Part shown: in pieces, positions 10,834-36,980 of the stretch
Layout: every line of letters starts with the position of its first letter
How positions within the stretch are numbered: the first letter of the stretch is position 1
Virus record (IMG/VR): IMGVR_UViG_3300010882_000012
DNA: 64,000 bases
From: a virus
Lineage: Duplodnaviria; Caudoviricetes
Reading direction: 5' to 3' (one strand)
The notes under the pieces: model-generated
Seen by the model: the letters and a program-made list of their open reading frames with translations, nothing else
Database searches by the model: none
What the model was told of the DNA's origin: nothing
Position numbers and translations under genes: made by a program

Positions 10834-11021
10834 ATTCTTTATTTAGTTTTTTCAATTAATACATAACAATAATGTAAACAATTTAACAGTGTACTTATAC
10901 CGCCGCTACTTATTTTAACTATTTCCCAATCATCATTTAATCTTCTTTCAAGTTCACAAGTATTATTACCTTTTACTAATATAAGTTCTTGTTTTTTCAT
11001 TTAATTTTTCTTTTTTCTTTT

Positions 11022-16920: not shown

Positions 16921-17040
16921 CTATTCTGAATTGTCGCAAAAGGCAACTACCTTATCAAACTTACCATTTTGAGAAAGTTCTCTAAATCGAAAATCTGTTA
17001 TTTCCTTAATTTGTCTCAATTTTCTGTTTGACAGTTTCAT
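16921..17040 (-). CDS. short ORF (39 aa), possibly truncated
   Basis: TAATG-coupled to upstream gene; MKLSNRKLRQIKEITDF. Confidence 0.4.
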   Translation of the reverse strand: MKLSNRKLRQIKEITDFRFRELSQNGKFDKVVAFCDNSE

Positions 17041-17363
17041 TATGCTATTCTTAAAAAGTTTAATTTTTTAAAACATCTCCACTCATTTCTTTCTGTATCA
17101 AAGTAAGTAAAAACCTTGTCACTTCTATCATATCCTTTCGGTTGTTGCTCAATTGGTACTTTATCTAACATTAAGTGTCCATATGCTTCTCTTGTGGTAC
17201 CATCTATCTTCTGAAAATAGAATTTTACAATTTCCAACCTCATCCTTTTCTTTAGATAGTACAATTGCCAAGCTAACTTTAATGCTTCTGAGAGATTACA
17301 TCCAGAAATTTTCACAAACTTCCAGGTCTCATTCATGATTTGTCTTTTGTCCTCTGTCTTCAT
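17040..17363 (-). CDS. SH3/WYL_2-like (DUF2693-like) protein
   Basis: LSEALKLAW...VKFYFQKIDGTTREAYG...TYFDTERNEWRCFK. Confidence 0.8.
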   Translation of the reverse strand: MKTEDKRQIMNETWKFVKISGCNLSEALKLAWQLYYLKKRMRLEIVKFYFQKIDGTTREAYGHLMLDKVPIEQQPKGYDRSDKVFTYFDTERNEWRCFKKLNFLRIA

Positions 17364-20160: not shown

Positions 20161-21432
20161 TTAACGCTCTATAATTTCAACGATATAACGAATTGTTGAC
20201 TGTTCTGTAGAATAAACCATAAACTCATTATTACGAATTGAAGTGCCGGCATGAGCATAAACACTATCAAAACCTTCACGATCAAGTTGTTTTTTATTTA
20301 AATCATAACAAGCCGATGTATGATTATAGATATGTTTTTGATTGCCCACATGAACATCATAGATTGCTAAGAAAGCTTTTTTGCTACAACCCTTTGCCCA
20401 ATAAGAACCAGAAAGAGAAGTATATCCAATAGATTTTTGTGCTTTATCTGCAAAATAAACAGAATTTCCATACATTGCACCTGTAATTATTACACCCGCC
20501 GGACGTATTAAAAGTCCGGTTTGCAAGATGTTCATCCAATTTTCATTTCTGCTACCATGCCAAAACAGTTCGCATTTTTGGTTTTTGGCTTTTGCAACAT
20601 AGCTCTTAAAGTTTCCTTCTGTTTTTTTGTTTACCACAGAAAAAGCTCTTTTGTACTGACCGGAATTGTTTCCCATCATTTTCTTAATGAGTTCTGCTTC
20701 TTTAGAAGACACTTCTTTAACTTCTAGTCCAAGTACCTCAAGCATGTCCATAGTGCTCTTAGAATTGCCCGTTTGCGTCCTGGTGGCTTCTTTTTGTTTC
20801 TTTATTGCTTCAACCTGACCCGCCATAACGTCCAAAAGTTTTTGTTCATCATCTAGCATTCGTTGTAATGATGAGGTAGAGTATCCGCTTTCTACAAGAT
20901 GGTTTTTTACGTGAGCCATTTTTCTCGGTACTGTTCGATACAATTTCAACAAACAATCATTAATAGTTGTTGAAGTACTTTGATTTCTTAAATGACCAAC
21001 CAAGTTGTCAAGGATTTTTTGAGCCTCATCAACTTGTGCTTGTGTAACATCTTCTTGAGTTACAGAATAGTTTTCTTTAATGGTTTTGTTTGCATATGCT
21101 TGGAGTTCGTCAATGAGTTGACGCACCATAGCATTCTGGATGGCGGTTACTTGTGCTCCGGTTGTAGCATCTTTGATATCGGCCTCAATCTTTTCAGTAT
21201 AGAGGTGTGTGATATCATTGTAACCTTTTTTGGTTTTTTCACGATACTTTTTATCCCAATCCGACATAGGATAAGAGTGCTCTATGGAGGTAGATTCTAT
21301 CCTGCCATAAACCACTTTAAAATTTCCATCGTTCTGCTCGAACATATGGTAAAACTTGTTGTTATTGTCCCCTGTAACACAAACCAGTTTTTTAACTTGT
21401 TTGCCTGGTACCGAGTAATCTGATATTTTCAT
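20161..21432 (-). CDS. poly(ADP-ribose) polymerase (WGR + regulatory + catalytic domains)
   Basis: NNNKFY..YGR; LYRTVP; WHGS, MYGNSVYFAD..KSIGY, NEFMVY (H-Y-E triad). Confidence 0.9.
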   Translation of the reverse strand: MKISDYSVPGKQVKKLVCVTGDNNNKFYHMFEQNDGNFKVVYGRIESTSIEHSYPMSDWDKKYREKTKKGYNDITHLYTEKIEADIKDATTGAQVTAIQNAMVRQLIDELQAYANKTIKENYSVTQEDVTQAQVDEAQKILDNLVGHLRNQSTSTTINDCLLKLYRTVPRKMAHVKNHLVESGYSTSSLQRMLDDEQKLLDVMAGQVEAIKKQKEATRTQTGNSKSTMDMLEVLGLEVKEVSSKEAELIKKMMGNNSGQYKRAFSVVNKKTEGNFKSYVAKAKNQKCELFWHGSRNENWMNILQTGLLIRPAGVIITGAMYGNSVYFADKAQKSIGYTSLSGSYWAKGCSKKAFLAIYDVHVGNQKHIYNHTSACYDLNKKQLDREGFDSVYAHAGTSIRNNEFMVYSTEQSTIRYIVEIIER

Positions 21433-21455
21433 ATGATATTGAATTTTGATAGTAC

Positions 21456-21512
21456 AAAAATACCGCTTTTTTCTTTACGATGAGAACCTAGATGGAAAAA
21501 GATACTAACAAT
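21456..21512 (-). promoter_or_regulatory. Class-1 promoter (one mismatch) for PARP unit
   Basis: ATTGTTAGTATCTTTTT plus TATTTTTG box. Confidence 0.75.
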
Positions 21513-21532
21513 TTCATGATAAGGTTTAAACT

Positions 21533-21560
21533 AAAAAAGTCCTTGATTACTCAAAGACTC
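21533..21560 (-). terminator. intrinsic terminator
   Basis: AGTCTTTGA-GTAA-TCAAGGACT-TTTTT. Confidence 0.8.
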
Positions 21561-21621
21561 TTTTAGACGTTCAAAAATCATTATTCACAAAATCTTGATA
21601 AATGAAAAAATCAAAAATTGT
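21533..21621 (-). ncRNA. candidate ~85-nt U-rich sRNA
   Basis: Own class-1 promoter and terminator; at most a 16-codon ORF. Confidence 0.6.
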
Positions 21622-21626
21622 ACTAC

Positions 21627-21683
21627 AAAAATATTGTAATTCTAGATATGAAAGTTTAGTTACATGAAAAAGTTACTAACAAT
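21627..21683 (-). promoter_or_regulatory. Class-1 promoter
   Basis: Motif plus box at fixed spacing. Confidence 0.8.
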
Positions 21684-21690
21684 CTGTTTA

Positions 21691-21723
21691 AAAAGAAAAA
21701 CGCCCATAGATTCTTTCTGGGCG
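21691..21723 (-). terminator. intrinsic terminator
   Basis: CGCCCAGA...TCTATGGGCG-TTTTTCTTTT. Confidence 0.75.
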
Positions 21724-22068
21724 CTTCTCGTCAGATTTTTGGGCGAAGGTTCTGTAACACCTTTTCTGGCAGCCTAATGGACCTAGTTGAAATCAATTGT
21801 TTTCTGTCCCGGCAGCATGCCCCATAAACCAAGATTCATTTCATGTTCAGGTTCTTGGTCGACCTGATTGCCGGCAAGGTGTTTTCGCTTTCGCTACGGA
21901 TTACCTTCGGTGCCGGCAGGCATTCTAAAGACCTGACTCGCGATTCCCGAACGGTTCGCATTATAGCGGCGGGCTCGAGGAGGTCTGGTTTTTCCGAGTT
22001 GACGTTAGGATTCCGCGCGGAGATTCCTGGTTTCTGATCAGCCTACCAGGTAGTGTCAATCGGATGAG
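21691..22068 (-). ncRNA. candidate ~375-nt GC-rich structured ncRNA (RNA1)
   Basis: Own promoter and terminator, no minus-strand ORF in track, many nested stems, pseudoknot. Confidence 0.75.
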
Positions 22069-22073
22069 ATTGT

Positions 22074-22129
22074 AAAAATACTAAAAATATCAATGCGAAA
22101 ATTTAAAAAGAGAAAAAGTTACTAACAAT
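22074..22129 (-). promoter_or_regulatory. Class-1 promoter (spacing 1 nt shorter)
   Basis: Motif 22113-22129. Confidence 0.75.
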
Positions 22130-22152
22130 TTAAACAATTTTTGATGAGGTTT

Positions 22153-22190
22153 AAAAAAGAAAAGAGTCCTTAGATTACTCTAGGACTCTC
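22153..22190 (-). terminator. intrinsic terminator
   Basis: GAGTCCTAGA-GTAA-TCTAAGGACTC-TTTTCTTTTTT. Confidence 0.85.
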
Positions 22191-22415
22191 TTCACCACCC
22201 AAATTGCTATTTGATTCCCCAATAGGTTGCAACCCTCCCAAGATTTCGGCATAGGTTCTTGGTTGACCGTCTTCTAGGTTGCTGGCGGTAATACGCTTTA
22301 AAAGCTTCCGCATCTTGCATTAACCTAATCGTGATTTTTCACCCCGACCACACTATTTGGTTGTTTTCAGCCCGGTTGTGAACCTCCTCGATTACTCGTT
22401 CGAGTCGACAATAGA
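22153..22415 (-). ncRNA. candidate ~260-nt structured RNA in 3' UTR (RNA2)
   Basis: Shares GGUYRACCAAGAACCU...AAUCUUGG with RNA1; nested stems. Confidence 0.65.
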
Positions 22416-22417
22416 TA

Positions 22418-23245
22418 TTAAAACATGTCTGCTTTTAAAATACGGATACGAACATCCGGATAAGGAACTCCAGTATAACGAGAATAAGCAGCTTTTGCTT
22501 GATTTTTTGTCATTACAGCATCATAATAACGCTCTTCCTCATCCGGGAATTTAACAGGATGTCCAAAACAAACATAATCTCCTTTTTCAGGATATGTAAT
22601 ACCTGCATCCTTATCATCAGTATCATCAATATCATCTTCAAGACGATATTGAGAATTTGCAAGCGCGCAAGGTTCATCATCAACTGTTGAAAAAAGCTCT
22701 GGATGGAATTCTTCAAGTTCTTCTAACGTAATTTCACCATAATGGATATTGGCTAAGTACTTTTTCAAATTTTCGCGGGTACCGGTCAAATTTGCGGAGG
22801 TGTTTCCAGTTACTTCAATTTCCAAATTGTAGTTTTGCAACACCTCTAAGGCCTCATCAAGTTCTTCTTCATCACATACCCAATCAACATCAACAATGAA
22901 TTGGTCATTAAGTCCGTAAAGGTCTGTAACCATTGCATTTACGGCTTGGTCATGTGCATGATCTTCATCATTCATTGCATTCAAAATGGTAAGCGCACGG
23001 AGATCATCCATAGCTTGTGCATCACAAAGAGATTTGAAGTAAATCCGGTAGTCTCCATTGTGTCTCCAGTCTATAACACCCTCATTTTTGAGGTCTTGCA
23101 TGAAAGTTGAAACAATTTGCTGCGTTGCCCAAAAATCGTTGGCGCGTAATTCGTTTTTAACTTCTAAAGTTGTGGTTTCTCCGTTCAATTCGATTAGAGT
23201 TTGTGCAACCACTTGCACATCATTTTTTGTAGTTGTCTTTTTCAT
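22418..23245 (-). CDS. acidic hypothetical protein with possible N-terminal winged helix
   Basis: TTTLEVKNELR...TQQIVS; Asp/Glu-rich. Confidence 0.8.
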   Translation of the reverse strand: MKKTTTKNDVQVVAQTLIELNGETTTLEVKNELRANDFWATQQIVSTFMQDLKNEGVIDWRHNGDYRIYFKSLCDAQAMDDLRALTILNAMNDEDHAHDQAVNAMVTDLYGLNDQFIVDVDWVCDEEELDEALEVLQNYNLEIEVTGNTSANLTGTRENLKKYLANIHYGEITLEELEEFHPELFSTVDDEPCALANSQYRLEDDIDDTDDKDAGITYPEKGDYVCFGHPVKFPDEEERYYDAVMTKNQAKAAYSRYTGVPYPDVRIRILKADMF

Positions 23246-23738: not shown

Positions 23739-23760
23739 GCTAATTGAATTTTGATACTGT

Positions 23761-23817
23761 AAAAATACTGCTTTTTTCTTTATAATGAGGCCCTAGATAG
23801 AAAAAGTTACTAACAAT
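23761..23817 (-). promoter_or_regulatory. Class-1 promoter
   Basis: Motif plus box. Confidence 0.8.
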
Positions 23818-36495: not shown

Positions 36496-36524
36496 AAAAA
36501 GAGCCTCAGATTTCTCTAAGGCTC
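36496..36524 (-). terminator. intrinsic terminator
   Basis: GAGCCTTAGA-GAAA-TCTGAGGCTC-TTTTT. Confidence 0.85.
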
Positions 36525-36623
36525 TAGATGGTGGACCATCATGATTGCCGGTCTAATTTAATCATCCGGATGATGGTCCTTCCTGCCTGGCGAGGACTGC
36601 ATTTCACCAGTCCGGAAAGTGTG

Positions 36624-36980
36624 TTATGATAACGGTTGTGAAGTTGTTGCACACCATGGACCTCTATTAGCTGCCCAGGACGTCTCACAACGGAGATTGA
36701 TACTTGGAATAGCATAACAAACTTTGAGGTCACCAAGGTGGTCATTTACGCCCAAAAATTGAGCATCACGATAACCATATGCTTTGGCATATTTTTCAAA
36801 ACGACTACGGATTGTTCTAACCGTACTTGCCCATTTTCTACGACCTTCTGAATTGTTGAGGGAGATAATGGTACTTTGAAGTGCACGATAAACACCGTCA
36901 CGACAATTTTCGTAAACTGCATTTGTACTTACAGCTTCTTCACGAGCTGATGTTGCTGGATTTTCTTTTTTTACTGACAT
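36624..36980 (-). CDS. hypothetical protein
   Basis: Start corrected to MSVKK. Confidence 0.75.
   Translation of the reverse strand: MSVKKENPATSAREEAVSTNAVYENCRDGVYRALQSTIISLNNSEGRRKWASTVRTIRSRFEKYAKAYGYRDAQFLGVNDHLGDLKVCYAIPSINLRCETSWAANRGPWCATTSQPLS

Follow-up and report, generated by a model that had tools for sequence, protein, structure and literature searches.

An orphan candidate non-coding RNA in a G+C-rich island of an uncultivated phage genome

Introduction

Phages rarely encode free-standing structured RNAs, and those that are known, pRNA, GOLLD and ROOL among them, are for the most part unexplained. Here we ask whether a short G+C-rich island in the genome of an uncultivated phage encodes another RNA of this kind, and what such an RNA might do. 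The window that we analysed is the last 64 kb of the 146-kb IMG/VR virus record IMGVR_UViG_3300010882_000012, which is 56% complete; its G+C content is 29.9%, and nearly all of its genes lie on the minus strand. At window position 11001, a single base differs from the whole-record sequence. A first-pass annotation of the window had described the island as a structured non-coding RNA of the minus strand (RNA1 hereafter) with its own promoter and terminator, a listed set of helices, and a possible tie to the adjacent PARP unit. The host of the phage probably belongs to the Bacteroidota, judging from a protein in the window that carries a T9SS C-terminal sorting domain and from the promoters described below, whose proximal boxes resemble TAnnTTTG, which we take to be the Bacteroidota -7 element. 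A host look-up by genomes gave a single genome match, which was not to a T9SS organism.

Results

A G+C-rich island without a usable reading frame

RNA1 sits in a 985-nt gap without a called gene, between the gene for a 275-aa protein and the PARP gene (Table 1). The 275-aa protein has no homologue among 5.8 billion clusters and is hence listed as an ORFan. The body of RNA1 (21724-22070) is 50.4% G+C, compared with 29.9% for the window, and contains the highest G+C content of any 150-nt segment in the 146-kb record (0.573, about 4.9 sd above the mean of 0.30; sd 0.056). Four other islands in the record reach a G+C content of at least 0.48, all of them lying in or against long open frames; RNA1 is the only G+C-rich island in the record without a stop-free frame of at least 80 aa. 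Long G+C-rich intergenic regions are where structured non-coding RNAs are sought (PMC8723152), and RNA1, with the gap and composition given above, is a region of this type. Composition is the strongest signal for RNA1.

Table 1. Features of the RNA1 locus, in window coordinates; nt, position within RNA1.
Feature	Position	Strand	Description
275-aa ORFan	22418-23245		neighbour of the RNA1/RNA2 region
RNA2	22148-22417	minus	45.5% G+C; from the stop of the 275-aa gene to a strong terminator (22159-22190)
RNA1 distal promoter element, ATTGTTAGTAACTTTTTC	22112-22129	minus	class-1 promoter of the first-pass annotation
RNA1 proximal promoter box, TATTTTTAC	22072-22080	minus	resembles the Bacteroidota -7 element
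RNA1	21691-22070	minus	predicted non-coding transcript, ~375-380 nt
Arm AGACCU/AGGUCU enclosing CUCG/CGAG, CCCG/CGGG and CGC/GCG	21929-21986	minus	nt 85-142
Arm of two UGCCGGCA palindrome copies (8 bp), AGGU/ACCU and a GC-GAAA-GC hairpin	21869-21918	minus	nt 153-202
Hairpin UCAGGU/ACCUGA, whose loop ACCAAGA can pair with downstream UCUUGGU	21828-21867	minus	candidate H-type pseudoknot
RNA1 intrinsic terminator	21695-21729	minus	12-bp stem, 11-nt loop, U-tract to 21691
RNA3	21533-21621	minus	A+T-rich unit of ~85 nt, between RNA1 and the PARP gene
PARP gene (WGR-PARP)	20161-21432		bounds the other side of the 985-nt gap

The first-pass annotation had found no minus-strand ORF in the island, and our analysis agrees: no ATG frame on the transcribed strand is longer than 41 aa, and the one of that length (21836-21961) starts 110 nt after the promoter box. 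Read-through of TAG and TGA gave no convincing frame in RNA1, and none of the small frames it contains matches a Pfam family. The longest of these (63 aa, plus strand) has no protein homologue and is never called as a gene. Gene callers run on independent assemblies placed nothing between the 275-aa gene and the PARP gene.

RNA1 lies between a recurrent phage promoter and an intrinsic terminator

The promoter 18-mer ATTGTTAGTAACTTTTTY has 28 near-exact copies in the 146-kb record. Full two-part promoters account for 23 of these copies, all on the minus strand, and in every one of the 23 a TATTTT(T/C)-type (TATTTTTAC-type) box follows 25-45 nt after the 18-mer. The promoter of RNA1 (22072-22129) is one of the 23; further examples lie at 21455-21512 and 23760-23817. 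In 21 of the 23, an ATG frame of at least 43 aa starts 14-34 nt past the proximal box, usually preceded by an A-rich leader of the TATCAAAAT type. Only the promoters of RNA1 and of the adjacent short unit RNA3 (21666-21683) have no gene start within 34 nt. From the position of the box, we infer that transcription of RNA1 starts a few nucleotides past it, at about 22066-22072.

The terminator in the first-pass annotation is also present, as a helix with a pair probability of 0.97 followed by a U-tract. A simple consensus terminator scan did not pick it up, probably because the 11-nt loop exceeds the 3-8 nt limit of the scanner. The 18-mer of the RNA3 promoter directly abuts the terminator of RNA1, and RNA3 itself runs from that promoter to a terminator whose hairpin is the feature seen in its predicted fold. 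We conclude that RNA1 is, at the level of sequence, a real and separate transcription unit, non-coding and set apart by its composition.

The regularity of the promoters bears on whether RNA1 is instead a gene for a small protein, namely the 41-aa frame on the transcribed strand. Such a frame does exist, but its start, 110 nt past the box, is far outside the 14-34 nt seen for all 21 coding units with their A-rich leaders. Moreover, the frame has no Pfam match and is not called on independent assemblies, and the sequence motif that RNA1 has in common with RNA2 (see below) falls in different reading frames in the two. We therefore give the small-protein reading the least credence of those we considered.

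RNA1 matches no described RNA family

The first-pass annotation did not recognise RNA1 as tRNA, tmRNA, RNase P or a known ribozyme, and it proposed a search with Infernal against Rfam. No family reached its gathering score anywhere in the window. The Rfam 15 families tested include RNase P, tmRNA, 6S, SRP, group I and group II introns, self-cleaving ribozymes, GOLLD, ROOL, OLE, HEARO, pRNA and riboswitches. When the search of 21400-22400 was relaxed to E <= 10, only three matches touched RNA1, all of them sub-threshold. One, to ctRNA_p42d, lies on the terminator and scores 18 bits (threshold 50); the other two are on the opposite strand, to Afu_190 with 14.1 bits and, at the 3' end of RNA1, to IS128 with 13.2 bits (threshold 80). 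ARAGORN found no tRNA or tmRNA gene in the window or the whole 146-kb record, and none with thresholds relaxed to 80%. Its calls at 70% are spurious; one 'tag peptide' crosses the terminator of RNA1 and the next promoter.

Several other identities were considered and rejected. A retron, DGR or group II intron RNA is not indicated, since reverse transcriptase (PF00078) is absent from the 146-kb record, itself 56% complete, and the neighbouring genes have no Pfam match of this sort. An IscB/TnpB omega RNA is not indicated either: none of the window's 84 ORFs matches a nuclease or OrfB family at E <= 1e-4, and there is no HEARO match. RNA1 has no tandem repeats and the gene downstream is PARP, which speaks against a type III antitoxin RNA. 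An attP site carrying a fragment of a host RNA gene was dismissed on the absence of a PF00589 integrase from the same 56% complete record and of any tRNA or tmRNA similarity. A MITE-like origin was dismissed because pairing of the ends requires G-U, no target-site duplication is present, and the element is single-copy. Candidate GNRA-receptor, K-turn and hammerhead-like motifs in RNA1 failed inspection by eye.

The predicted fold is well defined, with two competing closures

As sequence, every helix listed in the first-pass annotation is a perfect Watson-Crick complement at its place. As a secondary structure, the list held in part. Every model that we computed contains the arm at nt 85-142, the arm at nt 153-202, the hairpin at nt 204-224 and the terminator, with probabilities of 0.7-0.97; pair probabilities are 0.78-0.97 in the first arm and 0.94, 0.97 and 0.71 in the second, and both arms are found in the minimum free energy (MFE) fold as well as in the annotated model. 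In contrast, a fold of lower energy, in which the ends of the molecule are closed, competes with the annotated 5' hairpin, the AUGCC/GGCAU helix and the pseudoknot. At -116.6 kcal/mol, this MFE fold has four helices (28 bp) between nt 13-46 and nt 237-316, of which the three outer ones (19 bp, including four G-U pairs) join the 5' and 3' ends. The nested part of the annotated model has an energy of -109.9 kcal/mol, ~7 kcal/mol worse than the MFE fold; the extra pseudoknot stem, which the nested calculation omits, contributes -7.9 as a duplex and so roughly closes the gap. Hence, two incompatible folds of RNA1 have similar predicted energy. They differ in the choice between ACCAAGA/UCUUGGU and AAACCAGGA/UCUUGGUUU: nt 38-46 are the partner of UCUUGGUUU in the MFE fold, which does not form the pseudoknot stem. 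Both stems of the pseudoknot are perfect complements, and we regard the specific secondary structure, including the H-type pseudoknot, as a plausible model.

The MFE z-score is -2.41 for the whole unit and -2.46 for the core, compared with +0.47 for the complementary strand. However, z <= -2.4 is also reached by 4 of 42 further segments of 304 nt sampled from this genome on the strand of RNA1 (~10%), so the energy evidence alone is modest. Two of the 42 sampled segments have stronger z-scores than RNA1 (-5.3 and -4.3) and may hold long terminator hairpins or other structured elements. The folding ensemble sets RNA1 apart from its shuffles: ensemble diversity is 31 (68 +/- 19 for shuffled sequences) and positional entropy is 0.48 (0.97 +/- 0.27), each below the value of every one of the 60 shuffles, whereas the opposite strand is worse than its own shuffles on both measures. 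In these models, RNA1 has a well-defined ensemble on the transcribed strand only, and RNA1 is probably a folded non-coding RNA.

The island is also rich in palindromes. The 304 nt at 21755-22058 contain five G+C-rich 8-nt palindromes (CTGATCAG, CCGCGCGG, TGCCGGCA twice, and GGTCGACC), with 1.07 expected, a count reached by 0.4% of 2000 shuffles. The same segment has an internal near-repeat, CUGCCGGCACCGAA / CUGCCGGGACAGAA. An excess of palindromes could mean that the island works as DNA, as a set of binding sites for a dimeric protein, a recombination or packaging site, or a transcription-primed replication origin. Yet 3% of genome windows contain as many 8-nt palindromes, there is no inflection of G+C skew at RNA1, the record has no integrase, and the exact promoter-to-terminator bracket together with the strand-specific fold points to an RNA product. 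We consider a DNA-level element highly improbable.

A motif of RNA1 recurs in the neighbouring segment RNA2

On the far side of the RNA1 promoter, RNA2 shares with RNA1 a 16-nt core, GGTCRACCAAGAACCT (15/16 identity, 22253-22268), and the 8-nt sequence AATCTTGG (22238-22245). In RNA1, these correspond to the core of the pseudoknot and its AAUCUUGG partner, and their joint recurrence mildly favours the annotated pairing over the MFE fold at that place. We rejected the idea that RNA1 and RNA2 form a two-member family of paralogues, since only the core and its partner are common to both and the other short matches are not collinear; a covariance model of RNA1 (nt 85-224) does not match RNA2 at E <= 1. 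RNA2 has no promoter of its own among the 18-mer copies of the record, includes a 47-aa ATG frame with no Pfam match, and has a weak match to CsrC (22.2 bits, threshold 61). Instead of being an RNA in its own right, it may be an element of a 3' UTR. Elsewhere in the window, at 36500-36624 on the minus strand, a G+C-richer tail runs from the stop of a 148-aa ORF to a terminator (hairpin centred near 36505), and this may likewise be a structured 3' UTR.

RNA1 has no detectable relatives

Identical copies of the PARP gene are found on seven contigs. The three spanning assemblies that we examined are 100% identical over the 985-nt gap, as is a fourth, shorter contig over the 301 nt that it covers. 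Since the four independent copies are 100% identical, they carry no covariation information.

The first-pass annotation had also proposed a search for homologues among phage contigs; this found none beyond chance in phage, plasmid, IMG/VR, metagenome or prokaryote sequences. Comparison of RNA1 by blastn with phage and plasmid collections gave no match, three scans of IMG/VR with RNA1 motifs gave chance matches or none, a motif scan of metagenome contigs gave nothing, and prokaryote genomes scanned with a 21-mer yielded a single chance match. When 30 phage records were searched with a covariance model of nt 85-224, it matched only RNA1 itself. To the extent that these sequence searches can tell, RNA1 falls outside all described families and lacks detectable relatives.

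The promoter was more informative. A scan of IMG/VR with a 17-mer of the promoter recovered one true relative, IMGVR_UViG_3300010167_000012 (G049), a record of 217.7 kb with at least 12 copies; the same 17-mer gave promoter matches only in a metagenome scan. G049 is a distant relative that was recovered by the 17-mer alone, protein searches having missed it. The whole G049 record has no RNA1, no PARP and none of the motifs of RNA1, and shares only the promoters. Two class-1 promoters in G049 lie directly upstream of tRNA genes, indicating that this promoter class also drives stable RNA genes. The G+C-rich islands of G049 are its tRNA cluster, in which 11-12 tRNA genes lie at ~149.7-153.5 kb, partly behind class-1 promoters, and a collagen-like gene, whose Gly-X-Y coding stretch at ~212.2-212.6 kb is 63% G+C. 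As the nearest relative that shares the promoters lacks RNA1, RNA1 is dispensable for this phage group.

These results bear on a rival account, in which RNA1 is a transcribed but functionless insert, either foreign G+C-richer DNA or a decayed cargo gene that has come to lie in a promoter-terminator cassette, and its helices are what any sequence of 50% G+C would give. Neither RNA1 nor its 275-aa neighbour has relatives, the region is a variable accessory block that is missing from G049, the MFE z-score is not exceptional for the genome, and an excess of G+C-rich palindromes (5 versus 1.07) might be expected of DNA that phage selection has not purged. On the other hand, there are no frame remnants, no Pfam match or protein homologue, no match in the phage or plasmid collections, and no visible target-site duplication at the ends of the core. 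A DNA-level origin also does not explain the strand-specific ensemble or the fact that 4 of the 19 end-closing pairs are G-U, and the sequence is identical across independent samples. We rate a functionless insert as unlikely, but as a possibility that deserves weight.

RNA1 does not travel with phage PARP genes

RNA1 lies 260 nt upstream of the start of the PARP gene in the same orientation, and this proximity had suggested a functional tie. An RNA partner of WGR-PARP could activate the enzyme by binding to its WGR domain, be a substrate ADP-ribosylated at its end, or act as an inhibitor resembling a type III antitoxin. The surroundings are suggestive in that genes related to NAD metabolism lie in the same window: a Pfam search of 84 ORFs identified NAD synthase, NAPRTase/NAMPT, a cytidylyltransferase-like candidate NMNAT and an isochorismatase-family candidate nicotinamidase. 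The window also encodes a dephospho-CoA kinase, an AdoMet decarboxylase and a WYL_2/Sm-like protein (17040-17363).

The PARP gene has its own promoter, and the complete unit RNA3 lies between it and RNA1. Homologues of the phage PARP are common (2027 proteins at E <= 1e-20, and 249 loci in IMG/VR), the nearest non-identical one being 65% identical, and the relatives that we examined, all at or below this identity, have no upstream RNA. In 80 PARP phage loci examined, we saw no island within 3 kb that was comparable in being G+C-rich and free of ORFs. Over these 80 loci and two more, no ORF-free window at this distance exceeds the local G+C content by more than 2 sd, compared with ~4.9 sd for RNA1. 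BLAST over 47 whole PARP-phage records gave chance matches only, of at most 24 nt, and the covariance model did not find RNA1 in such records either. Because the 80 loci lack a comparable island, the proposed link to PARP is unsupported; RNA1 also lacks the tandem repeats that an antitoxin of type III would have. We regard a PARP partnership as quite improbable. The negative result matters in itself: PARP genes are common in phages, and an RNA of this kind does not accompany them.

Discussion

We suggest that RNA1, at ~375 nt, is a separately transcribed non-coding RNA that is specific to its lineage, folds into G+C-rich arms and acts in trans, most plausibly by binding protein, and we hold this reading at about an even chance. 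In outline, a class of phage promoter that drives 21 protein-coding units would here fire into a G+C-rich body without a usable frame, and the transcript would end at the intrinsic terminator. It would fold into several G+C-rich arms connected by A-rich linkers, of which three arms and the terminator are predicted whichever fold model is chosen. The folded RNA may then accumulate as a stable molecule and act as a scaffold or a decoy for protein, rather than by base-pairing.

A riboregulator that base-pairs with host mRNAs or other host RNAs would be an alternative, and in its favour RNA1 is an independent small transcription unit beside a second short one, RNA3. However, at 375 nt and 50% G+C RNA1 is long and structured for a small RNA that pairs through a seed. 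Matches of 11 nt to the transcripts of the phage itself number 19, with 11 expected and a maximum of 23, and the longest complementarity to them is a 15-nt A+T-rich site. Complementarity to phage transcripts is thus at the level of chance, which argues against an antisense role within the phage. We judge a base-pairing riboregulator improbable.

A bolder version of the non-coding RNA reading makes RNA1 the first representative of a new phage RNA class, either working with the adjacent NAD/PARP module or forming a self-assembling ornate RNA; we think this very improbable. In the first case, RNA1 might be a nucleic-acid activator bound by WGR, or its end might serve as the acceptor of ADP-ribose; in the second, its palindromic segments might make homo-oligomer contacts.

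RNA1 is a credible orphan candidate non-coding RNA. As a single sequence from one uncultivated phage lineage, without relatives, its value is that of a well-delimited candidate and not of a discovery. If it is a new structured RNA, the clean promoter-terminator bracket makes it easy to test experimentally.

Among known systems, type III toxin-antitoxin loci of the ToxI type resemble the RNA1 locus in their order of promoter, non-coding RNA, terminator and then a potentially toxic enzyme. They differ in that RNA1 has no tandem repeats and that the downstream gene has its own promoter and encodes a PARP instead of an endoribonuclease of the ToxN type.

The species 1 and 2 RNAs of phage T4 are stable phage RNAs made alongside tRNAs. 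Like them, RNA1 is phage-encoded and non-coding, and its promoter class drives tRNA genes in G049. Unlike them, RNA1 comes from a 146-kb record without tRNA genes, has no tRNA-like fold (ARAGORN, to 80%), and is two to three times longer.

The pRNA of phi29, which is among the families in Rfam, is likewise a phage RNA with its own promoter, and its role in a protein machine is the kind of scaffold role that we propose for RNA1. RNA1 nevertheless matches no Rfam model, no packaging genes were identified near it, and phi29 is unlike the RNA1 phage in type and in genome size.

Further parallels are ROOL and GOLLD, large structured phage-borne non-coding RNAs with free-standing genes. Both are Rfam families and often occur in phages and prophages; ROOL is roughly 580 nt and GOLLD roughly 800 nt, so that RNA1, at ~375 nt, is shorter. 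Their covariance models do not match RNA1 even at E <= 10, and they are families of many members with covariation, whereas RNA1 has no relatives. Homo-oligomer contacts are reported for ROOL, GOLLD and OLE (PMC12286853), and the palindromic segments of RNA1 could in principle mediate contacts of a similar kind.
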